Assembly (NCBI GenBank): GCA_017504465.1
Contig: JAFVRE010000051.1
Coordinates: 5,218 to 69,217, forward strand
Source of the DNA: Clostridia bacterium
GTDB lineage: Bacteria; Bacillota; Clostridia; Christensenellales; Borkfalkiaceae
Length of the DNA: 64,000 nucleotides
Direction of reading: 5' to 3'
A model generated the notes under the pieces. It searched no databases, had not been told where the DNA came from, and was given only the letters and a program-made list of their open reading frames with translations. Of this stretch, positions 41,185-64,000 are shown in pieces (position 1 is the first letter of the stretch; every line of letters starts with the position of its first letter). Both the position numbers and the translations under genes were made by a program.

Positions 41185-42738
41185 ATGAAAAAAGAAATCT
41201 TACAACTTAATGAGAAAAACACTTGCAACTGCGAGCACCAAAAACAACAATTGTTTGCGTCATTAAAGAGTAGGCGTAAAAAAATCCTTGCGCTTGGAGG
41301 AATTTTCTGTGCTCTTGTTGGTAGCGCATCACTCCTTACATTTACGGGGTGCGATTCGCAGGGCGATTCAATCGGTTGTATCTTTGAATTGTCTGAAAAT
41401 AGGAGATATTACGTAGTGGCAGGCGCGAAAGATCAAGATATTAAGGAAATAGTTATCCCTGCTACCTACAAGTTGAAACCAGTAAAAGAAATTAAGGAAG
41501 AAGCTTTCATGAACTTTGATAGCTTAACGAGCGTAAAAATTCCCGATAGCATAACTGTTATTCGAGAGTTGGCGTTCTTTGGTTGCAATAGCCTAGTTGA
41601 TGTGAAAATCCCTAATAGTGTAACTACGATAGGTCAACAAGCGCTTAGTTATTGCGATAGCTTAGAGAGTGTGACAATTCCTGACAGTGTAACGACAATA
41701 GGGGATAGTTTGTTCTTTAAGAGCAATAATTTATCGAATGTTAGAATCGGGAAGAATGTACCGGCTCTTCCCAATAATATGTTCAACGGTTGTGAAAAAT
41801 TAGAAAAGGTGGAAATTCCTGATAGTGTAGAAATGATAGATTCGTATGCATTCTATGGTTGTAAAAGCCTGTCGCGTGTAGTAATAGGGAACTGCGTAAC
41901 AACTATTGGGAGATATGCGTTCGCGGGTTGCTCTGAATTAAAAAATATAAAAATCCCTAATAGTGTAACCGCGATTGGCGGGTCGGTGTTTTCTAATTGT
42001 GTTAAATTAGAAAATGTGGAAATTCCTGATAGTGTAGAAATGATAGATTCGTATGCATTCTATGGTTGTAAAAGCCTGTCGCGTGTAGTAATAGGGAACT
42101 GCGTAACAACTATTGGGGGATATGCGTTCGCGGGTTGCTCTGAATTAAAAAATATAAAAATCCCTAATAGTGTAACCGCGATTGGCGGGTCGGTGTTTTC
42201 TAATTGTGTTAAATTAGAAAATGTGGAAATTCCCAATAGGGTTACTTCTATTGGTGATTATGCGTTCAGCGGTTGTGGAAGTTTAACGTCTTTGAAACTT
42301 CCAAGAGCTATTACTACCATTAGCACTGGGCTTTTTGAAGGATGCAGAAATTTAACCAACATAGTAGTCCCCAATAGTGTTGTTTCTATCGATCAAAATG
42401 CGTTCCGTAGGTGTGAAAACTTGACGAGCATAACTTTCCCGGATACTCTTACTTCTATCGGTAGATATGCATTCGATAGATGTAGAAATTTGACAAATAT
42501 AGTCCTTCCTAAAAAGATAGCTACTATTGAAGCCAATGCTTTTGAAGGATGTAACAGTTTGGCAAGTGTATATTATAAAGGCGGGTTTCTTGATTGGACG
42601 CAAATTCGCTTTGAATATGGGAATGATGATTTGATTAACGCAACGCGTTATTACTACAGTGAAAACAAAGAAAACGAGCTTGTGCAAACGGCAAATTATT
42701 GGCATTACGGCAAAAACGGTAATATTGTAATTTGGTGA
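41185..42738 (+). CDS. BspA-type leucine-rich-repeat surface lipoprotein
   Basis: About 23-aa repeats of the form IP.SVT.IG..AF..C..L. Lipobox-like LTFTGC after a hydrophobic segment. C-terminal NYWHY..GNIVIW. Confidence 0.85.
   Translation: MKKEILQLNEKNTCNCEHQKQQLFASLKSRRKKILALGGIFCALVGSASLLTFTGCDSQGDSIGCIFELSENRRYYVVAGAKDQDIKEIVIPATYKLKPVKEIKEEAFMNFDSLTSVKIPDSITVIRELAFFGCNSLVDVKIPNSVTTIGQQALSYCDSLESVTIPDSVTTIGDSLFFKSNNLSNVRIGKNVPALPNNMFNGCEKLEKVEIPDSVEMIDSYAFYGCKSLSRVVIGNCVTTIGRYAFAGCSELKNIKIPNSVTAIGGSVFSNCVKLENVEIPDSVEMIDSYAFYGCKSLSRVVIGNCVTTIGGYAFAGCSELKNIKIPNSVTAIGGSVFSNCVKLENVEIPNRVTSIGDYAFSGCGSLTSLKLPRAITTISTGLFEGCRNLTNIVVPNSVVSIDQNAFRRCENLTSITFPDTLTSIGRYAFDRCRNLTNIVLPKKIATIEANAFEGCNSLASVYYKGGFLDWTQIRFEYGNDDLINATRYYYSENKENELVQTANYWHYGKNGNIVIW
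41809..42222 (+). repeat. two tandem 207-bp copies (three LRR units each) inside the first LRR gene
   Basis: 41809-42015 and 42016-42222 differ at one position by eye (gggagatat versus gggggatat). Confidence 0.9.
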
Positions 42739-42782
42739 AAAATACGCGAATAAAAAAGGGTGTAAGAATAAGAGGTGTATTT

Positions 42783-44528
42783 ATGAAGAGAACGCAAGGA
42801 TCCTGTCAAATTAATGAAGAAAAGTATTGTAACGATAAAAAACAACATTCTCGTTCACATTTAAGAAGACGCAGGAAGATACCGCTTGGCGGAATCGTCT
42901 GTGCAAGTCTTTGCGCGATATTCGTTTTAGCTTTTACGTCATGTACTGGTCTATTTGATTTTTTGAATACAGACTCGAACAATTGTATTTTCAAATTGTC
43001 TATGGACAAAGAATATTACATAGTAACGGGTGTAAAAGATAAAGACGTTACGGAAATTACGATTCCTGATACTTATAGGGGAAAACCAGTAAAAGAAATT
43101 ACGGAAGGCGCGCTTAGCGGGTGTAGTAAGTTGATTGATTTAACGTTGCCGTTTGTTGGGTTGGGCGAAGGATCTGAAATCAGTGGGATGGCAGGTGTGT
43201 TTGGAGTGGGACGTGACTTATATGGTACGTACTATTCAGTAGGGTATAGGGACTACCAAATTCCGAGTGCGTTGAAAAAAGTAACCGTTACTGGCGGAGA
43301 GATAGGCTCTCGAGCGTTTAAGGGGTGTAGAAACTTAACTCGCATTGTCGTTCCCAACGGGATAACTTCGATTGGTGATTATGCGTTTAAGGAGTGCGAA
43401 AACCTGCAAGAAATTGAAATTCCTGACACTGTAACTTCTATTGCTAATGGAGCGTTTGAGGATTGTAAAAGTTTAGAGAGTATAAAAATTCCAGATGGAG
43501 TAACTTCTATCAGTAACGGGGTGTTTGAAGGTTGTGTGAGCTTGAATAGTATAGAAATTCCAGATGGAGTAACTTGTATTGAAGGGTGGGCGTTTGCTCA
43601 TTGCGAAAGCTTGAAAGAAATTGAAATCCCTAACAGTGTAACGGCTATTGGCCAGCATGCATTTAATAGCTGTAAAACATTGAAGACTGTTACGATTCCT
43701 GACGGGGTAACCGTAATTGAGTTGAGTACGTTCGAAAATTGCTATAGTTTGAAGAGCGTTATGATTCCTGACGGGGTAACTGCAATCGGCGGGGGAGCCT
43801 TTGATGGTTGTGGTGAATTAAGGGGCATACGGTTACCTGACGGCTTAACTTCTATTGGATATAGCGCGTTCAAAGATTGTCATGCTCTAAAAGAGATACG
43901 TATTCCAGATGGGGTAAATTCTATCGAAAGGTGGGCGTTCATAGGGGCTAAAAACTTGGCGAATGTTCTACTCCCTAACGGCTTAACTTCTATCGGTAGT
44001 ATGGCTTTTATGGGCTGTATCGGATTAGAGAATATACAATTGCCTAACACCCTGACCTCTATCGGCGATAATGCATTCACAATGAGTGGTTTGACGAGTA
44101 TTGAGATTCCCAACAGTGTAACTTCTATCGGTCAGAATGCATTTGAAAGTTGTAAAGGTTTAAGTAGTGTAATAATACCCAGCAGTGTGACTTCTATTGG
44201 ACGGAGCGCTTTTGGATATTGCAGTGGTTTGACGAGAGTTGTAATATACGCTCGCATAACGGCACTTGGGGATCAATTCCAGGGATGTGAGAACTTGACG
44301 AGTATTATAATTCCTGATAGTATAACGTCTATCTCTTATAGCGCGTTTGAATTTTGCGATAAGTTGACCAACATATATTATGAAGGAACGAAAAGCGACT
44401 GGGCTAATATATCGGGGTCTTCGAACTCAAAATTAAACTCTATGACGTATTGTTACAGTGAAACCGCGCCGACGGAAGACGGGAATTATTGGCATTATAG
44501 CCCCAAAGGCAATATTGTAGTTTGGTAA
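42783..44528 (+). CDS. BspA-type leucine-rich-repeat surface lipoprotein, paralog (start at the ATG after AGAGGTG)
   Basis: Same repeat type, lipobox-like LAFTSC, C-terminal NYWHYSPKGNIVVW. Confidence 0.85.
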   Translation: MKRTQGSCQINEEKYCNDKKQHSRSHLRRRRKIPLGGIVCASLCAIFVLAFTSCTGLFDFLNTDSNNCIFKLSMDKEYYIVTGVKDKDVTEITIPDTYRGKPVKEITEGALSGCSKLIDLTLPFVGLGEGSEISGMAGVFGVGRDLYGTYYSVGYRDYQIPSALKKVTVTGGEIGSRAFKGCRNLTRIVVPNGITSIGDYAFKECENLQEIEIPDTVTSIANGAFEDCKSLESIKIPDGVTSISNGVFEGCVSLNSIEIPDGVTCIEGWAFAHCESLKEIEIPNSVTAIGQHAFNSCKTLKTVTIPDGVTVIELSTFENCYSLKSVMIPDGVTAIGGGAFDGCGELRGIRLPDGLTSIGYSAFKDCHALKEIRIPDGVNSIERWAFIGAKNLANVLLPNGLTSIGSMAFMGCIGLENIQLPNTLTSIGDNAFTMSGLTSIEIPNSVTSIGQNAFESCKGLSSVIIPSSVTSIGRSAFGYCSGLTRVVIYARITALGDQFQGCENLTSIIIPDSITSISYSAFEFCDKLTNIYYEGTKSDWANISGSSNSKLNSMTYCYSETAPTEDGNYWHYSPKGNIVVW

Positions 44529-46686: not shown

Positions 46687-49600
46687 TTACACGATTTGAT
46701 TGTTTTCATTGAGTACAAATTGATTGATTAGACTAATGATATAGTCTTTCGTGTATAAGCCTTTTTCAACACCGATCTTCATAATAGGAATATTATATTC
46801 GTCAAAGACGGAAATGCCGCAATATTCTTCCCATTCGTCATAAGTGTACAATCCATAGAACGCAATATCTGCTTGCATTTTAGCGCTATCATAAACCAAG
46901 TTATCGCCAAAATCAAAAGTATTGATAATATCAACCAAAACGTGAGTAACGCTTAAGGTATCTTCGGCAACGTAGTTCAATGTTCCTTCGCTTACAATAT
47001 CGTACTTATAGCCGTCATCATGGTATTCTGAAACAACGTTAACTAATTTCTTAGTGGTAATATTGCCTTGCGTGTCAATCGCAACAAAATCGTGTCCTAT
47101 AAATTCATGATAATTTTCATGGGAAATATTAACGTATTTGTTGAGATTTAAGTCAAAGATACCATGTTCGTTAATGGTCGCCAATTTCGTACCGTCGTCA
47201 AATACAAAGGTGTTCTTATAATATGCGCTTTGCGTTCTAACAACAATAATAACTTGCCGATAAACGATTTGACCTGTTAAGTGGTCGAAAGACATAACCA
47301 TATTACCCTTGCGCAAATCTTCGACCGCTTTTTTACTGCCGTCCGCAAGCGTAATCAATGTCCCAGCTGCAAGACAGGTGTTAGATTTATCAGTTCCAAT
47401 TATGGTGTAGCTATAGGTTTTGCCAGACTCAATTTTTACATTATTAACGGTAGGGGGAGGGGAAGAGGTAGAAGTATTTTTCAAGTTTGTAATCGAAAGA
47501 GTTGAATCTGGTAACAAATAAAGTTCATATGTTTTTGATTCCACTTTTAGATTGTGAGATATGTCCGTTGAGCTACCGTTTTGAACGTAAGTAATGGTAA
47601 AGGTAGGATAGTCGCCGCTACTACCTTGGTTGGCGATGATTTCCACAGTGCCTTTCTTGGGCCAAAGAGCATAAAGATTAAGGGTAAGACAATTGTAGGG
47701 ATTTAATTCGGCATTATCAAATGTTACGAAATTGGTAGTTGCTATTGTTTCAACTTTCTTCGTCGCATCTCCGCTTACTGTCGTCCAACCATCAAAGTAG
47801 TTGGCAATACCAGTATTCGTATTATCGGCTGTTAGCGTGGATTTGAGCTCAGTTAAATAACCATTTATTTCAGTGGGAAATTGGCTTTCCATAAGATATA
47901 CGTCTTTGCCTGTAACTTTTTGCGAAGAGGATGTAGGATCTCCCTCTGAAGGGTATAAGATGAAATGATATTTAAGAGCCCAACTTGCGTATAACGTGAT
48001 ATCACTCGTTAAATGCTGAGCCTTATCAAAAAGAACTTCTTCTCCCGTGGCTTCGTCTATAATATACCACCCAAGGAATTGCTTTGGATAGGTGGTTGTT
48101 TCATTTAAGGTTTTTGTTTTATCTACAGGGTTATAAAACGAAGGCGGGGCGTACGTGTCAGCTTTCGTGCTGGCAACGCTCTCTTCTAAAGGCGTGTTTG
48201 CCACTTCGTCGTCATCGTTATTAAGCACGTAAGTGATGTTATAAATTACTGCGTTTTTGTCAAGCCAAGCACCGTAAAGGGTAAGAGGATTTGCCGTTGC
48301 ATCTTCTTCGCTTACGCCTTCAAGAAGAGCCTCTCCGTCAATTGCGGTAATCTTCTGCGTTAATGCTTCGTCTAAATACCAACCGTCAAACTTAAATTCT
48401 TCCCACGTTGGAGCTACGAGTCTTTCAAAGAAGTCTGCGTGATATTCGGTGGGGTTGGGGTTTGTAGGCGTGGACGTAATACCCGTCGTATCAACAAATT
48501 CTGAAGTAATTACGTAATTGATATTATAGTAGGGTTCCTTAGGTTTCCAGTTTGCCCAAAGGTCAGCGTTTACATACGTTACCTGTCCGACGGGATCTTC
48601 GCCGTTTAAGGTCCACCCGTCGAAAGTGTAATGTTCGCGTGTAGGCGTAACGGTGGGAAGGTCACTTTCCTGAATGGTATAACCGCCGTCAACAGTATGT
48701 TCGATGGTGTTAGGTGCGGTAGCGAAAGTACCGCCGTTTGCGTTGTAAGAAATAACTTTTGTTTTTGAATACCATTTTCCATTCAATACGTTATATTCTC
48801 CCTTGGGGAGAATTGTGTCGTCAAGGGCAACGGTATCTCCTTGGGCAGTCAAAGTACTTTCTTTATTGGTAAAATATTCAATACCAGTATAACCCATAGA
48901 AACATTATAAGTTATAAAAAGGACGGTAACAGGTATTTTTATGGATTGTCCAGTGATTACACCGCGGATTTCTTTAGAAATAACAGAGTTGGATTCCGTG
49001 ATGTTTAAAACAGCATTTTCATTGCTTGTGTCTATCGAACCGCCAATATTCGCAACGTTTAAAATCCCGTTCATCATAAACAGCGCGGGTGTTTGGGTTG
49101 TATAGTGATTATCATAACCATTCTTAAACAAATCGTTGTTTGCGTAAACGGCAATCGAGCTTGCATTGAGCGTTACCCCTTCGTTGACCGTTAATTTGGA
49201 TCCAGGGAGCAATTTAAATTTTTGTTTCGTAGCATCTACCGTGGTGGCTACTACGTTATTGTTTTCATCTACGGTAGGGTTTAAACTAACGTCGAAATAG
49301 TCGGAGATAGGGAAGAAGACGCTTGTCGTTGCAAGTGTAACGTTCATATTTACCGTAATACTTGAAGCTGTTTTCGTAACCTTTAAAGTTAAGCCCATAG
49401 GGTTTAACTGCATATCCCCATAAATATCCAAATCCATTTTACGGGTAGAATAATCGTATTTGCTGACAAGGTAGCTGCTTTCTTTTTGTAGGGTGATTAA
49501 CGCTGTTGAGCTGGAGATAACGTCAACAATGATATCATTGTCTTCGCCGTTTGCATACAAGTTTGCAAGGGCTTTAACGTTTGCATTATAGTTCACGGTT

Positions 49601-50757
49601 GTTTTAGCCGTAATAGTGGCAATGAAGAAACGGTTAAAGGGTGGGGTTTGTAAACTGTCGTAATCATACGTTCCCACGTTTGGATCAATACCCTTCACTG
49701 CAGCTTCACCAATTTTTTTACGAACGGTTGCATTTCCAGGATCAATCAAACCAAAATAAGCCGAGCCGCCACGGTGTTCCACTACGGAGAAGACAACTGT
49801 TACCGCGCCGCTTTCTGCGATAAATTCCGAACCATTATCTTTGGACGTCTCGTTAATAAAGCCGTAGCAAGTGATTGTTCCCGTATTTGTTAAAATGGAG
49901 CTTGCCCCTAAATTGATTTGTCCGTGCCTACCTGCCGTAACGGAGTTTGCGCTTTCAGGTTCACTTCTATGCATTTCAGCGCTACCGCCCGAAACTTCGC
50001 CTGCTATATTAATCGTACCGGCGTTTGAAATTTGAAGTCCGTCCGCTACGTAAAGCTGGTTATTCAAATAAATGGAATTACCAAAAGAGCTTTTTCGATA
50101 AGCGGTAGAAGACGTGGTAACGAACGCAAGTGTCGTATCCATCGCGTCGGTTGCATAGGGCAAAGCCAAAGTAACACCGGACTTAATTTCCGTTGTCGTT
50201 TCAATAGTTTTTGCGCTTTTTGCCCGAAGTGTATCGACTTCATATCCCAAAGGCAAAGAATATACAGTACCCGGGCTTGCATTTGCCGCTGCCAACGCTC
50301 CGTCTATTGTGGAATAGTACGTGTCGCCAAATTTTGCAACGGGAAGTAGAGTAGTGGTAATACTCGTAGAAATAGGAAGAGCGAGATAACCGTCAGGGGC
50401 AGGTGTTTCCGTGGAAAAAGTAAGTTTTACCGTTTGATTTTCAATGGATTCACTCGTTGAAGAAGCGCTAACTTTTTCTACTGTCCAAGTACCCTTGCTA
50501 ATGGTGGACGTATCGCTGTCATTACTATATTGAACAACAACCCCCGAAACCGTTGTTCCTTCCGAAGAAATTTTTTCGCCTGCATAACAGCTACTTACAA
50601 CAGGGGTACCTTGGATTTTAAGCGTATAAACGGAGAGTTGGTTAGGATTTCCCGAAAGGGGTGGAATTGTTATCGGGGAAAACCAAACAGCCCCGCCGAT
50701 AGAACACAGCAGAGCTAAAATGGAAAAACAAATTATAAGAAAGTACTTTTTCTTCAT
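46687..50757 (-). CDS. 1356-aa secreted/surface protein: N-terminal signal-anchor, beta-rich region, Listeria-Bacteroides (Flg_new) repeats, C-terminal Hint (bacterial intein-like) domain plus an 84-aa tail
   Basis: N-terminus MKKKYFLIICFSILALLC. Repeats of the form Y.ANGG...P.R..Y.FDGW at aa 667-1033. Hint block A CLAAGTLITLADG (Cys1128) and block B TINEHGIF. Confidence 0.85.
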   Translation of the reverse strand: MKKKYFLIICFSILALLCSIGGAVWFSPITIPPLSGNPNQLSVYTLKIQGTPVVSSCYAGEKISSEGTTVSGVVVQYSNDSDTSTISKGTWTVEKVSASSTSESIENQTVKLTFSTETPAPDGYLALPISTSITTTLLPVAKFGDTYYSTIDGALAAANASPGTVYSLPLGYEVDTLRAKSAKTIETTTEIKSGVTLALPYATDAMDTTLAFVTTSSTAYRKSSFGNSIYLNNQLYVADGLQISNAGTINIAGEVSGGSAEMHRSEPESANSVTAGRHGQINLGASSILTNTGTITCYGFINETSKDNGSEFIAESGAVTVVFSVVEHRGGSAYFGLIDPGNATVRKKIGEAAVKGIDPNVGTYDYDSLQTPPFNRFFIATITAKTTVNYNANVKALANLYANGEDNDIIVDVISSSTALITLQKESSYLVSKYDYSTRKMDLDIYGDMQLNPMGLTLKVTKTASSITVNMNVTLATTSVFFPISDYFDVSLNPTVDENNNVVATTVDATKQKFKLLPGSKLTVNEGVTLNASSIAVYANNDLFKNGYDNHYTTQTPALFMMNGILNVANIGGSIDTSNENAVLNITESNSVISKEIRGVITGQSIKIPVTVLFITYNVSMGYTGIEYFTNKESTLTAQGDTVALDDTILPKGEYNVLNGKWYSKTKVISYNANGGTFATAPNTIEHTVDGGYTIQESDLPTVTPTREHYTFDGWTLNGEDPVGQVTYVNADLWANWKPKEPYYNINYVITSEFVDTTGITSTPTNPNPTEYHADFFERLVAPTWEEFKFDGWYLDEALTQKITAIDGEALLEGVSEEDATANPLTLYGAWLDKNAVIYNITYVLNNDDDEVANTPLEESVASTKADTYAPPSFYNPVDKTKTLNETTTYPKQFLGWYIIDEATGEEVLFDKAQHLTSDITLYASWALKYHFILYPSEGDPTSSSQKVTGKDVYLMESQFPTEINGYLTELKSTLTADNTNTGIANYFDGWTTVSGDATKKVETIATTNFVTFDNAELNPYNCLTLNLYALWPKKGTVEIIANQGSSGDYPTFTITYVQNGSSTDISHNLKVESKTYELYLLPDSTLSITNLKNTSTSSPPPTVNNVKIESGKTYSYTIIGTDKSNTCLAAGTLITLADGSKKAVEDLRKGNMVMSFDHLTGQIVYRQVIIVVRTQSAYYKNTFVFDDGTKLATINEHGIFDLNLNKYVNISHENYHEFIGHDFVAIDTQGNITTKKLVNVVSEYHDDGYKYDIVSEGTLNYVAEDTLSVTHVLVDIINTFDFGDNLVYDSAKMQADIAFYGLYTYDEWEEYCGISVFDEYNIPIMKIGVEKGLYTKDYIISLINQFVLNENNQIV

Positions 50758-50769
50758 AATATTCCCTCG

Positions 50770-60880: not shown

Positions 60881-60965
60881 GCGTCGCCTCTCCAATTAGC
60901 ATTTCGCCTTGAAGAGCTATCGGTATGCTCCTTTGCGCCGCTTTGTCTTTCTCGGTTCTAACCCC
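60881..60965 (+). repeat. post-stop-codon repeat element, copy after queA
   Basis: tatgctcctttgcgccgctttgtctttctcggttctaacc resembles gtacgctccttcgctccgctttgacttgcttgtataacc at 58700. Confidence 0.6.
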
Positions 60966-61011: not shown

Positions 61012-61040
61012 CGCTCGTCTTTTCAAAGACGAGTTTTTCT
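61012..61040 (+). terminator. rho-independent terminator after queA
   Basis: Stem ctcgtct/agacgag followed by a T5 run. Confidence 0.8.
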
Positions 61041-61060: not shown

Positions 61061-61089
61061 TTGATTTTTATAAAAAGCTATGATATAAT
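61061..61089 (+). promoter_or_regulatory. promoter of the terminal LRR gene
   Basis: TTGATT, 17-nt spacer, TGA-TATAAT. Confidence 0.6.
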
Positions 61090-61175
61090 ATAAGATACGC
61101 ATGGCGCGCCTTCTTTGTTGTTGTACAACAAAGAAGAGCTTTTAAAAGAAAATCTTATCATTGTGAGGAAAACGT

Positions 61176-64000
61176 ATGTCGTTAGACCTTTTTCAAATGG
61201 AATGTCAAAATTGCGGCGCGATAATGGATCGCGACAATGCCGTTCGCGGTGTGCTCCGTTGTGAGTATTGTCGTAGAAGCTACGTCTTACCCAAAGAAGA
61301 CCAAGTTTCCGAAGTGCTCGTCGAATTAGAGCTTGGTAAAACAAATCTCAACGCCTGCGCGTTCACCAAAGCATACGGTGCGTATGCAAAAGCCGTCGAG
61401 CTTGATCCCAGCGAGCCCGAGGGATATTTTGGTATGGCGCTTGCTGAGAATAAAATTCAGTATTTAAAGGACGTGGTGCTCGATAAGCTTACCCCCGTTC
61501 GTTACGAAAGAAGCGGCGGAAAGTTTTCCGAAAACGCACATTATAAAAAGGCGGTTTCGCTGGCTACGAAGGAACAGGCGAGTGTGTATAAGGAATACGC
61601 CAAGGAAATCGACGAAGTGTTTGCCGAGTTTGAAAAATTATATTCGGCAGGCGCGGAATACGATTGCTATTTAGGTGCGCCCGCTGACGACAAATGCGAA
61701 GAGCAAAAGGTAGTTTCCGAGCTTTATGAAAGGCTGAAAACGGACGGCTATAAACCTTTCTCGTCTCGCGAAGAGAAAAAGCGCTTTCCCAAGTTTTCCT
61801 CTTCCGTCCTTGAACTGTTCGCGCTCGTCAGCGCAAAGTGTTTCGTGACCGTTTGTTTTGACGAAGGGAAATTAAAAAACAAAGAATTTAGAAATAGCTA
61901 TTCGAGATTTATCGACGTCAATAAATCGGTACGTAAACCCAAAAACAACTTGACTGTTTTGTTCAAGGATAAGCCCGTTGAACAAATCCCCGGCATTTAC
62001 GGTAAATTGCAAGGTATCCGTTACGGCGACGCATTCGCTTACCGCGATTTAACCAGATACGTGGACGTAATGCTCGGCAGAGTCAAACCTGCGACCGAGG
62101 GTATGAACAAGCGTAAAATCGGCGCGATTGCGGCGGCGGCAGCCGTACTTGTAATCGGCGGTACGGTCACAGGTATCGTGCTCGGCACGCAAAATGACAA
62201 CGGAACGCAAGGCGGCGGAACAAAACCTGCGGAATTCGTATATACCGAAAACGGCACGGACGGCTACAAACTCAGTTCGGTTGTACTCAATGGCAATACG
62301 ACGCTCGTTTTGCCCGGCGAATATAACGGCTTGCCCGTCACTGCAATCGGAGAGGCCGCGCTCAGCGGTTGTTCGGATTTGACAAAACTGACCTTGCCCG
62401 ATTGCTTACTTTCTATCGGCGATAACGCCTTTTCAAATTGTAGTAAGCTCAGCGAAATCGTTTTACCTCAAAATCTCGTTCAAATCGGCGATAACGCCTT
62501 TTCGGGCTGTTCTTCTCTTTCCGAAATCGTATTGCCGTCAAGCTTAACCAACCTCGGAGACGGCGCGTTCAACGGTTGTACTTCGTTGACTTCCTTCGTC
62601 TTACCGCAAACGCTCAGCGCGCTTGGTGGCGGAGTATTTTCAGGCTGTTCTTCGCTTGAAAGTTTGAACGTGGATTTTGGCTTAGTCGATTACACGTTCG
62701 GCGGATTTTTCGGTACGGAATATTTCAGCGGTTCAACCGCAGTTTATCAAAGAAATACCGCTTACTATTTACCCGACTCTCTCAAAACTGTAACGGTTAC
62801 GGGGGAAGATTTACCCTTTGGCGCATTCCAAAACTGCGCGAAGTTGACCGCCGTTCATTTTACGGGCGAAGTAAGCGCTATCCCCAACAACGCCTTCCAA
62901 GGTTGCTCGGCTCTTACGGGTTTGACCTTACCCCAAACGCTGACGGAAGTGGGAATCGGCGCTTTTAAGGACTGTTCTTCGCTGGAACAAATCCAGCTTT
63001 CCGAGCTGGTTGCAACGGTTGGAAACGAAGCGTTTATGAACTGTTCTTCCCTCGCGTCCGCGTCCATTTTAAACGATTCGGTTACTATCGGCGAAGACGT
63101 ATTTTACGGTTGTACGGAGTTAAAGACCTTAACCGCGCCCTGCAACATGAAAAAGCTTGCCGAATACTTTGGCAGGGAATCCATACCCCAAACAACCCCC
63201 ATCGAGTTCGAGACGGTTACTTATTATGTTCCCGCGCTTGAAAAGGTAACCTTAATCGGTGAGAAAATCGTTGAAAAAGGGGTATATGGGTTCGTAAATT
63301 TAAAAGAAGCGAACTTGTCTTCGGACTTGACTGAAATCGGCGAGCAAGCCTTTTTGAACTGCGTATCCCTTCAAGGCGTGGATTTCACACACGTCACGTC
63401 GATAGGGGATAAGGCGTTCGAGGACTGTACTTCGATTACCCAAATCGAACTCCCCACGACCATTCAAAACTACGGCGCAGAAATTTTTAAAGGCTGTTCG
63501 GAAATTGAAAATCTCACGTTCTCGTTCTTTAACGGCAACGATACGTTTGGAAACTTATTCGAAAAAACACAAGCGACGGGCTCACCTGAACCTGCGCCGA
63601 TCAGCGAGTCGGAAATCACCTACGTATCCATACAGCGTGAAAACGGTGCGTATGCTTTACCTGTTTCTCTTTCTAACGTTTCCGTCATCGGTAACGTTCT
63701 TCCTGTAGGCGCGTTTGAAAATTGTTCGTTTATAGACAAAGTGAATTTGGGTTCTGAAATTTCTTCCATTCTCGCGAGAACTTTCTACGGCTGCACCGAG
63801 CTTACCAACTTCACGGCGGAAACGAAAATTACGAGCATTGGTTACGAAGCCTTTTACGAATGTGAAAGCTTGGTGGACTATCCGCTTTCCGAAAGCGCGA
63901 CCTTGCTCGGATATAGCGCCTTCTACGGCTGTAAAGCATTGAAGGAAATCTTTATCCCTACCGCCATTACTTACGTTTCAAATTCTACCTTCCAAAACTG
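61176..64000 (+). CDS. zinc-ribbon / TIR-like / single-TM / BspA-type LRR protein; 3' end outside the window; not in the supplied ORF track
   Basis: My own translation from the ATG at 61176 stays open to position 64000. It shows CQNCG...CEYC, then EYDCYLG...SAKCFVTVCF...SYSRF, then KRKIGAIAAAAAVLVIGGTVTGIVLG, then more than 20 LRR units (LP..L..IG..AF..C..L). Confidence 0.8.
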   Translation, partial: MSLDLFQMECQNCGAIMDRDNAVRGVLRCEYCRRSYVLPKEDQVSEVLVELELGKTNLNACAFTKAYGAYAKAVELDPSEPEGYFGMALAENKIQYLKDVVLDKLTPVRYERSGGKFSENAHYKKAVSLATKEQASVYKEYAKEIDEVFAEFEKLYSAGAEYDCYLGAPADDKCEEQKVVSELYERLKTDGYKPFSSREEKKRFPKFSSSVLELFALVSAKCFVTVCFDEGKLKNKEFRNSYSRFIDVNKSVRKPKNNLTVLFKDKPVEQIPGIYGKLQGIRYGDAFAYRDLTRYVDVMLGRVKPATEGMNKRKIGAIAAAAAVLVIGGTVTGIVLGTQNDNGTQGGGTKPAEFVYTENGTDGYKLSSVVLNGNTTLVLPGEYNGLPVTAIGEAALSGCSDLTKLTLPDCLLSIGDNAFSNCSKLSEIVLPQNLVQIGDNAFSGCSSLSEIVLPSSLTNLGDGAFNGCTSLTSFVLPQTLSALGGGVFSGCSSLESLNVDFGLVDYTFGGFFGTEYFSGSTAVYQRNTAYYLPDSLKTVTVTGEDLPFGAFQNCAKLTAVHFTGEVSAIPNNAFQGCSALTGLTLPQTLTEVGIGAFKDCSSLEQIQLSELVATVGNEAFMNCSSLASASILNDSVTIGEDVFYGCTELKTLTAPCNMKKLAEYFGRESIPQTTPIEFETVTYYVPALEKVTLIGEKIVEKGVYGFVNLKEANLSSDLTEIGEQAFLNCVSLQGVDFTHVTSIGDKAFEDCTSITQIELPTTIQNYGAEIFKGCSEIENLTFSFFNGNDTFGNLFEKTQATGSPEPAPISESEITYVSIQRENGAYALPVSLSNVSVIGNVLPVGAFENCSFIDKVNLGSEISSILARTFYGCTELTNFTAETKITSIGYEAFYECESLVDYPLSESATLLGYSAFYGCKALKEIFIPTAITYVSNSTFQN

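Follow-up and report, generated by a model that had tools for sequence, protein, structure and literature searches.

In the current view, bacterial TIR domains cleave NAD as enzymes of cytoplasmic anti-phage systems; TIR domains that serve as non-catalytic scaffolds and receptors that join a TIR domain via a transmembrane (TM) helix to leucine-rich repeats (LRR) have, to our knowledge, been treated as animal inventions. A conserved glutamate is required by all prokaryotic TIR NADases examined (PMC7282519); in RUN1 the catalytic glutamate is E100, which is equivalent to E642 of SARM1 (PMC7282519). Many TIR domains of Toll-like receptors (TLR), MyD88 and TIRAP are devoid of this residue and act as scaffolds (PMC7075850), and it is likewise missing from sensor-type plant TNL TIRs such as that of RRS1, which is paired with RPS4 (PMC7282519). 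Here, a gene at the 3' end of a 64,000-nucleotide stretch from a Clostridia bacterium of the Borkfalkiaceae is described (contig JAFVRE010000051.1, positions 5,218-69,217; the whole stretch analysed is referred to as the window), the product of which, the window protein, is predicted to combine a cytoplasmic zinc ribbon, TPR-like unit and TIR fold with a single TM helix and an extracellular BspA-type LRR_5 array. Sequence comparison places this protein in a rare TIR-TM-LRR subfamily as a derived offshoot that, by prediction, has lost catalysis; the other known members of the subfamily look enzyme-competent.

In a phmmer search the N-terminal 340 residues of the window protein retrieved 12 proteins (32-39% identity, E-values of 1e-45 to 3e-59, 81-92% of the query covered), and a profile of the module, searched against 1.84 billion cluster representatives, matched 7,277 proteins, including 3,751 at E<=1e-30. 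Family-wide comparisons were based on a representative set (n=156) and on the best 150 matches by profile score; in the latter, the module was always located at residues 1-311 of proteins of 420-2,618 amino acids (aa) in length. According to these alignments, the window protein is a member of this Clostridia family end-to-end over the module of ~311 residues. Among the GTDB species representatives 117 relatives were found, none of which exceeded 42% identity; almost all of them derived from gut Clostridia metagenome-assembled genomes (MAGs) labelled Christensenella/Christensenellaceae or uncultured Clostridia, the MAGs coming from rabbit and mouse collections and containing up to seven family loci each, and copies were also present in the cultured Pumilibacter muris. 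The family is apparently very large and undescribed. PADLOC gave no match for the window protein or for the canonical members P0004, P0007 and P0138, and the literature searched contained no description of a zinc-ribbon/TPR fusion with a TIR domain and a TM-LRR C-terminus; a paper on a peptide of Christensenellaceae EB1010 concerns the TIR domain of host TLR4 and has no link to this family. The locus points to an unannotated gut-Clostridia family of thousands of clusters, present in several copies per genome, with a constant head and hypervariable tails: 82 of the 156 representatives possessed a TM segment without LRR, 48 had LRR_5 without a TM segment and 22 neither, and a TM segment preceding the LRR was restricted to four representatives and the window protein. 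LRR_5 without a TM segment was also present in 37 of 87 genomic copies.

The TIR domain of the family follows the consensus YDCFICVKV...GYKPFFSERE...TGADYEA.ILYAL..SECMLVVC...TPWVKNEYTRF. Eight of its positions (C167, K169, E198, G206, Y209, E210, W237 and E241; signature CKEGYEWE) were invariant in 156 of 156 representatives; the full signature was present in 85 of 90 genomic family copies, and none of the genomic copies covering the positions of W237 and E241 was devoid of either residue. In the window protein the signature reads GPRKSSES, i.e. none of the eight residues is kept (C167G, K169P, E198R, G206K, Y209S, E210S, W237E and E241S), and the family motif GADYEA is replaced by KFSSSV. 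A TIR-only profile aligned the family W-V-K-N-E with W-C-L-D-E of the RUN1 TIR domain and the family G206 with the glycine of RUN1 "LRRGEAI"; in the SARM1 TIR sequence taken from the PDB, E642 is the last residue of W-V-H-K-E and so likewise follows the tryptophan at W+4, while the glycine of the BB loop, which together with the adjoining conserved motif is required for assembly and activity, is G601. Because the hhalign comparison of the family TIR profile with the SARM1 TIR domain was insignificant (29-column fragment only), the residue mapping was based on the hidden Markov model alignment with RUN1, together with the spacing of the motif and the agreement in fold. By this mapping, the TIR mechanism known for NAD+ cleavage is predicted to be unavailable to the window TIR domain, which would be catalytically dead. 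The preliminary description of the window had pointed out that the usual acidic residue in front of WSRF reads S, and indeed S241, which precedes Y-S-R-F, replaces the family-invariant glutamate aligned with RUN1 E100; the degeneracy proposed there does include the loss of the catalytic glutamate but is not confined to one residue, as all eight signature residues are lost.

A total of 77 positions were conserved in the family to at least 90%. The window protein keeps 25 of 30 such positions in the zinc-ribbon/helical part, whereas 18 of 39 remain in its TIR core (Fisher p=0.002). Compared with the family consensus, its TIR domain reaches an identity of 0.33 (family 0.69 +/- 0.05; z = -7.3) and its N-terminal part one of 0.49 (family 0.63; z = -2.7). 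By these measures the decay is concentrated in the TIR domain, the rest of the cytoplasmic module appearing largely conserved. The zinc ribbon retains 5 of 5 conserved family positions, with beta-knuckles at residues 26-28 and 35-37 of the AlphaFold2 model; all four cysteines given in the preliminary description are present and family-conserved, the spacer between the two pairs being 15 residues instead of 17. The segment regarded there as a helical linker is rather a conserved TPR-like unit: the family profile matched consensus TPR proteins at positions 50-90, TPR_11 was present in 10 of 13 family members, and the window protein keeps 20 of 25 conserved positions of the unit, the TPR-like family motif EPEAYFGMALA being EPEGYFGMALA. 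As a separate observation, the nearly invariant Q-P-I-C-H motif of the beta-hairpin (aa 106-110; 61491-61505) is T-P-V-R-Y in the window protein; C109 was found in 146 of 156 representatives, and the histidine following it was conserved in the 12-member alignments. Q-P-I-C-H may represent a further site of metal binding or interaction, lost in the window protein together with the TIR residues.

With regard to the fold, the window protein did not reach the gathering threshold of Pfam TIR_2 (PF13676) or TIR (PF01582) (E-values of 0.055-0.18; 12.8-14.4 bits versus a cutoff of 28); all 12 homologs matched TIR_2 at E<=0.01 (best 1.1e-11). The AlphaFold models of aa 1-314 (pLDDT 85.8, pTM 0.83) and of the TIR domain only (aa 153-305; pLDDT 89.4, pTM 0.85) were of high quality scores, and a Foldseek search of the PDB with the latter gave 21 matches at E<=1e-3, every one a TIR domain, with SARM1 as the best match (2.3e-5) followed by TIR-STING, TIR-1 and MyD88. 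The SPARTA TIR domain (E=3.7e-3) yielded the best superposition (TMq 0.72, rmsd 2.8 A); TM-scores of isolated TIR-domain chains, normalised to the target, were 0.53-0.66. Since 37 of 46 hydrophobic core positions are retained and no indels or frameshifts occur across 143 residues, aa 158-300 have probably kept the TIR fold; the contrast between the retention of core hydrophobic and of conserved polar positions was only suggestive (p=0.08). The TIR-like module of the preliminary description was thus recovered at the level of the fold, including residues ~160-250, the part for which a TIR or flavodoxin-like fold had been demanded there. The fold is shared with the TIR NADases (AbTir, ThsB, TIR-STING, SPARTA TIR-APAZ, RUN1, SARM1; Foldseek probability 1.0), and the glutamate of W-x-x-x-E and the BB-loop glycine are common to these enzymes and the wider family, whereas the window protein lacks the catalytic glutamate, the tryptophan and the BB-loop glycine and remains sub-threshold in Pfam.

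The nearest protein found, P0138 (2,618 aa), ranked first of 156 with 46.5% identity over 299 aa of the module. Its TM helix is situated at the same position (residues 316-335), its stalk and first LRR are collinear with those of the window protein, and it shows 19 LRR_5 stretches and a TIR_2 match above the threshold (38.6 bits). P0138 is encoded in a series of three TIR_2-LRR_5 genes (2,618, 3,167 and 656 aa) that are arranged in tandem with gaps of 15-18 bp; the 2,618- and 3,167-aa proteins have the intact CKEGYEWE signature and one TM helix each, the third protein having been read for its first 154 aa. Between the window protein and P0138, aa 1-157 are 56% and the TIR domains 36% identical; between P0138 and its tandem neighbour the corresponding values are 59% and 79%, the TIR domain there being the most conserved region. 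P0138 and its neighbours therefore share with the window protein the zinc-ribbon/TPR/TIR module, the TM position, the stalk and the giant LRR_5 ectodomain, and differ by their full signature, the TIR_2 match above the cutoff and the three-gene array, whereas the window gene follows ruvCAB-queA. Within the family, a rare subfamily with a TM helix and a giant, predicted extracellular LRR tail can thus be delineated, one member of which would have selectively lost TIR catalysis. The tandem array was located on the ENA scaffolds L085 (6564-24420) and L086 (1632-19488), where it adjoins sugar-metabolism genes.

The open reading frame (ORF) has no stop codon inside the window, as had been noticed before, and was followed further on the metagenome scaffold L078, an independent assembly recovered via the complete QueA protein as exact-match handle. 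L078 differs from the window by 5 mismatches in 14,164 bp, its gene product is identical to the window protein in 941 of 941 aa, and no stop codon appears in at least 764 further codons past the window edge, which makes the frame at least 1,705 codons long; a frame interruption just beyond the window, which would have indicated a pseudogene, is therefore absent, and the reading frame is intact.

The encoded protein (at least 1,705 aa) is predicted to be of type II, with a single membrane pass and the N-terminal 314 aa in the cytoplasm. The TM helix consists of a 23-residue Ala/Val/Ile/Gly stretch with KRK directly before it; four K/R among the 15 residues before and one after agree with the positive-inside helix claimed earlier, and no second TM segment was present within 1,705 aa. 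Given the N-terminal zinc ribbon and the missing signal peptide, an N-in/C-out orientation is predicted. The BspA-type array proposed for the far side of the membrane was confirmed by Pfam LRR_5 (PF13306): the part inside the window matched at E=1e-98, and the extended protein reached 3.7e-183, with 11 stretches. The array comprises at least 1,369 aa; the more than 20 units previously counted up to the window edge have to be reduced to 15-16 clear ones, at least 23 units of 23 aa being reached in the extended protein only. At the DNA level, Tandem Repeats Finder detected no repetition in the stretch encoding the LRR; the repeats are therefore old and diverged. LRR_5 arrays without signal peptide or TM segment were observed in 48 of 156 family members (P0001, P0004, P0009, P0010, P0225 and others) and in many Ser/Thr-kinase-LRR_5 fusions (P0190-P0274); these TM-less arrays are predicted to be cytoplasmic sensor-like domains on signalling heads. 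The Pkinase-LRR_5 proteins were considered as a kinase-TM-LRR parallel and rejected, being soluble fusions without a TM segment.

In its predicted topology the window protein matches animal TLRs, with LRR outside the cell, one TM helix and a TIR domain on the cytoplasmic side. However, TLRs are type I proteins with a C-terminal TIR domain and typical capped LRR, whereas the window protein is of type II with an N-terminal TIR domain, no signal peptide, BspA LRR_5 and an additional zinc-ribbon/TPR unit. All sequence relatives of its module are bacterial TIR_2 proteins from Clostridia; because the nearest relatives are bacterial enzyme-type TIRs, the likeness to TLRs is, according to the comparison, topological and convergent and not a matter of homology. 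Of the TLR domain logic suggested in the preliminary description, the topology and the glutamate-less TIR domain stand, but the polarity is reversed, LRR type and descent differ, and most family members have cytoplasmic LRR or none. With the RRS1-type TIRs the window TIR shares the loss of the glutamate in a family otherwise keeping it, and subfamily members occur as adjacent paralogs; it differs in that no paired executor gene was seen and no NB-ARC is present, and by its membrane anchor and predicted extracellular LRR. The long LRR_5 array is common to BspA and the HupY/LrrG-type adhesins (partial match to NCBIfam HupY/LrrG at 5e-29, far below its cutoff); BspA-like proteins are exported by a signal peptide, whereas the window protein would be anchored by a cytoplasmic TIR module and a signal-anchor helix. 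No cell-wall anchor, Ig-like or Flg_new domain was detected in the 1,705 aa recovered.

Taken together, we incline, by a modest degree, to regard the window protein as a non-enzymatic surface receptor or adhesin, the cytoplasmic module of which would remain engaged in contacts. The LRR ectodomain would bind an external ligand or surface, whereas the zinc-ribbon/TPR unit, which is conserved, and the scaffold of the TIR fold would mediate protein-protein contacts in the cytoplasm; among the partners there may be paralogs with intact catalysis, in a hetero-association like that of the RRS1-type sensor TIRs with their executor partners. The paralog contact is proposed because of the precedent of the glutamate-less sensor-type plant TIRs and because of the tandem arrays in the subfamily; the scaffold or sensor role suggested in the preliminary description is plausible. 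If the dead TIR domain is functional, the enzyme-to-scaffold transition would have arisen independently in bacteria, and P0138 and the window protein would form a natural active/inactive pair for studying it.

Several points weigh against this interpretation. Nine of the 46 hydrophobic TIR core positions are now polar (W237E, Y209S and I213E among them), and since the AlphaFold models lean on the alignment of canonical members, we infer the retention of the fold in the divergent window copy. The family samples are biased to canonical members, having been taken as the top 150 by score with one of two seed patterns located in the TIR domain, and the topology was derived from hydropathy and the positive-inside rule only. 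No ortholog of the window protein was present in any collection searched. The 64-kb window did not contain a canonical paralog or a partner gene either; as the downstream region lies beyond the sequence recovered, the partner idea is without direct support in the source genome.

The strongest competitor, to which we would give a clearly lower though still appreciable chance, is a pure surface adhesin with an LRR-only function, the N-terminal module of which serves as a signal anchor and the TIR domain of which is vestigial under relaxed selection; the protein would then be an unusually anchored BspA-type surface protein. In its favour are the TIR-specific loss of the eight invariant residues and of nine core hydrophobics, the orphan status of the protein, for which no orthologs were found, the absence of the gene from sister lineages and the lack of partner genes upstream. 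That the zinc ribbon and the helical unit are kept to the extent given above argues instead for a cytoplasmic module still under selection, and 80% of the TIR core hydrophobics persist without indels or frameshifts in 143 residues.

Unlikely, in our estimation, is the far-reaching version of the receptor hypothesis, i.e. that the protein has converged on TLR logic also in function, with ligand binding by the LRR clustering the scaffold TIR and thereby recruiting or activating competent TIR paralogs; if true, it would be the first prokaryotic scaffold-type TIR signalling and the first sensor/executor TIR pair across a membrane. Still less probable is a decaying gene or pseudogene, a lineage-specific remnant with an incidental long ORF: the extreme long branch in the family, the absence of the gene from sister lineages at the same locus and a 3' end beyond the recovered sequence would be compatible with decay, but not so the length of the stop-free frame, the intact promoter-like and ribosome-binding signals, the well-formed LRR_5 repeats throughout and a protein identical in two independent assemblies. 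An active enzyme, in which E237 or another acidic residue nearby replaces E241 in cleaving NAD+ or another nucleotide, seems very unlikely; residue 237 is indeed a glutamate now, located four positions ahead of the catalytic one that was lost, in a confidently predicted fold, but the conserved glutamate is indispensable in the prokaryotic TIR NADases examined (PMC7282519), the BB-loop glycine and the GxDYEA motif, invariant in the relatives, are lost as well, and the Pfam TIR_2 score is 13-14 bits here versus 38-40 bits in relatives. A wrong topology, with a non-spanning or re-entrant hydrophobic segment and a cytoplasmic LRR array as in most family members, is regarded as the least likely, since in spite of the TM-less LRR_5 proteins among representatives and genomic copies and of the soluble kinase-LRR_5 fusions, the hydrophobic stretch lies between KRK and a polar G/T/Q/N stalk, has a counterpart at the equivalent position of both P0138 and the 3,167-aa protein next to it, and is not followed by a second TM segment that would return the chain inside.

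Table 1. Coordinates of the gene, the regions of its product and nearby signals (window positions unless L078 is named)
Feature	Position	Strand	Basis or remark
ORF	61176-64000	+	941 codons open to window edge, no stop
Extended ORF on L078	11340-16454		at least 1,705 codons, no stop, runs off scaffold end
C4 zinc ribbon C10, C13, C29, C32, predicted cytoplasmic (aa 8-38)	61197-61289	+	Cys conserved family-wide
Three-helix TPR-like unit, followed by a beta-hairpin and a long helix (aa 45-157)	61308-61646	+	conserved family module
TIR-fold domain, predicted catalytically degenerate (aa 158-300)	61647-62075	+	Foldseek, AlphaFold2, family alignment
BB-loop-equivalent region	61767-61808	+	family SE(R/E)E...TGADYEA; window SREEKKRFPKFSSSV (E198R, G206K, Y209S, E210S)
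Catalytic motif position	61884-61898	+	family W-V-K-N-E; window E-F-R-N-S (W237E, E241S)
Single TM helix, predicted signal anchor, N-in/C-out (aa 315-337)	62118-62186	+	Kyte-Doolittle hydropathy 2.33
Gly/Thr/Gln/Asn-rich juxtamembrane stalk (aa 338-355)	62187-62240	+	from translation; collinear with P0138 stalk
BspA-type LRR_5 array, predicted extracellular	62241-64000, continuing past window	+	15-16 clear 23-aa units, four blocks
Ribosome-binding site GAGGA	61165-61169	+	6 nt 5' of ATG; from sequence
Promoter-like site TTGATT-17-TATAAT, extended -10 TG	61061-61089	+	10/12 matches; consensus match only
Terminator-like hairpin closing the upstream ruvCAB-queA unit	61013-61034	+	9-bp stem, then T-run

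The promoter-like site of the ORF is situated 3' of the terminator-like hairpin (Table 1). The GC content at third codon positions (GC3) of the ORF is 0.53, the same as in the neighbouring genes; there is therefore no sign of a recent foreign origin, and a recent horizontal acquisition was rejected. A whole-protein search of 5.8 billion proteins gave no ortholog, the best matches (~30-33% identity) being confined to the LRR; when metagenome contigs were scanned for exact DNA matches to a 32-mer of the window end, nothing was retrieved, and a scan of such contigs for back-translated peptides of the window protein gave no relatives.

The genes upstream are of the housekeeping type: mutY, FMN reductase, acyltransferase, argH (minus strand), ruvC, ruvA, ruvB and then queA (identified by PF02547 on the identical protein in L078). 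Sister lineages (RuvB at least 90% identical at the protein level; ~85% nucleotide identity over ruvB-queA) keep this synteny, and their nucleotide homology to the window ends at about 60,890-60,960, ~10-80 nt past the queA stop codon. At the same locus 3' of queA, the family gene is absent from these lineages, the positions being occupied by DUF4130, a radical-SAM gene, a gene for an 803-aa protein without Pfam match and prophage genes. A prophage large terminase and portal lie a few kb 3' of queA on L079 (18895-21053) and L083 (16170-18398), and argH is missing between the acyltransferase gene and ruvC in the sister lineages. From these gene orders, the surroundings of the ruv operon are best described as a rearrangement hotspot. 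In two MAGs, the RuvB protein of which is 76% identical to that of the window, ruvA and ruvB are separated by a canonical family copy (L054, 9953-12445; L068, 4866-8711), whereas the window gene follows queA in the same operon neighbourhood. Positional orthology with these ruv-linked copies was rejected: they rank only 50 and 77 of 89 by similarity to the window protein and have different C-termini. As they are not its closest relatives, the ruv locus may be a recurrent landing site for family genes.

At about 12-19 of 77 genomic loci the canonical family copy is part of a conserved co-directional cluster, which comprises in order a SPFH/Band-7-zinc-ribbon protein, three small proteins (143, 240 and 230 aa, no Pfam match), a tandem AAA+ ATPase, the family gene and a trypsin-like peptidase (examples are L007, L016, L020, L035, L045, L048 and L074; L020:8166-10370, L021:8721-9902, L074:12218-13039). 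The AAA+ proteins were grouped by single linkage, which took in some RuvB or RuvB-like AAA+ ORFs; the best PADLOC match of the tandem AAA+ ATPase of the cluster was IetA (3.5e-40). The cluster looks like an uncharacterised conflict system.

Further large repeat proteins are encoded elsewhere in the window. Two overlapping/adjacent LRR_5-type ORFs of 517 and 601 aa (41185-42735 and 42723-44525, plus strand) are markedly AT-richer than the remainder of the window (GC3 of 0.34-0.37 versus about 0.5) and may have been horizontally acquired. A 1,360-aa ORF on the minus strand (46690-50769) has the Listeria-Bacteroides repeat (Flg_new) as its sole Pfam match; its position is conserved in L078 and L079, and by its repeat content it is likely to encode another large surface protein.

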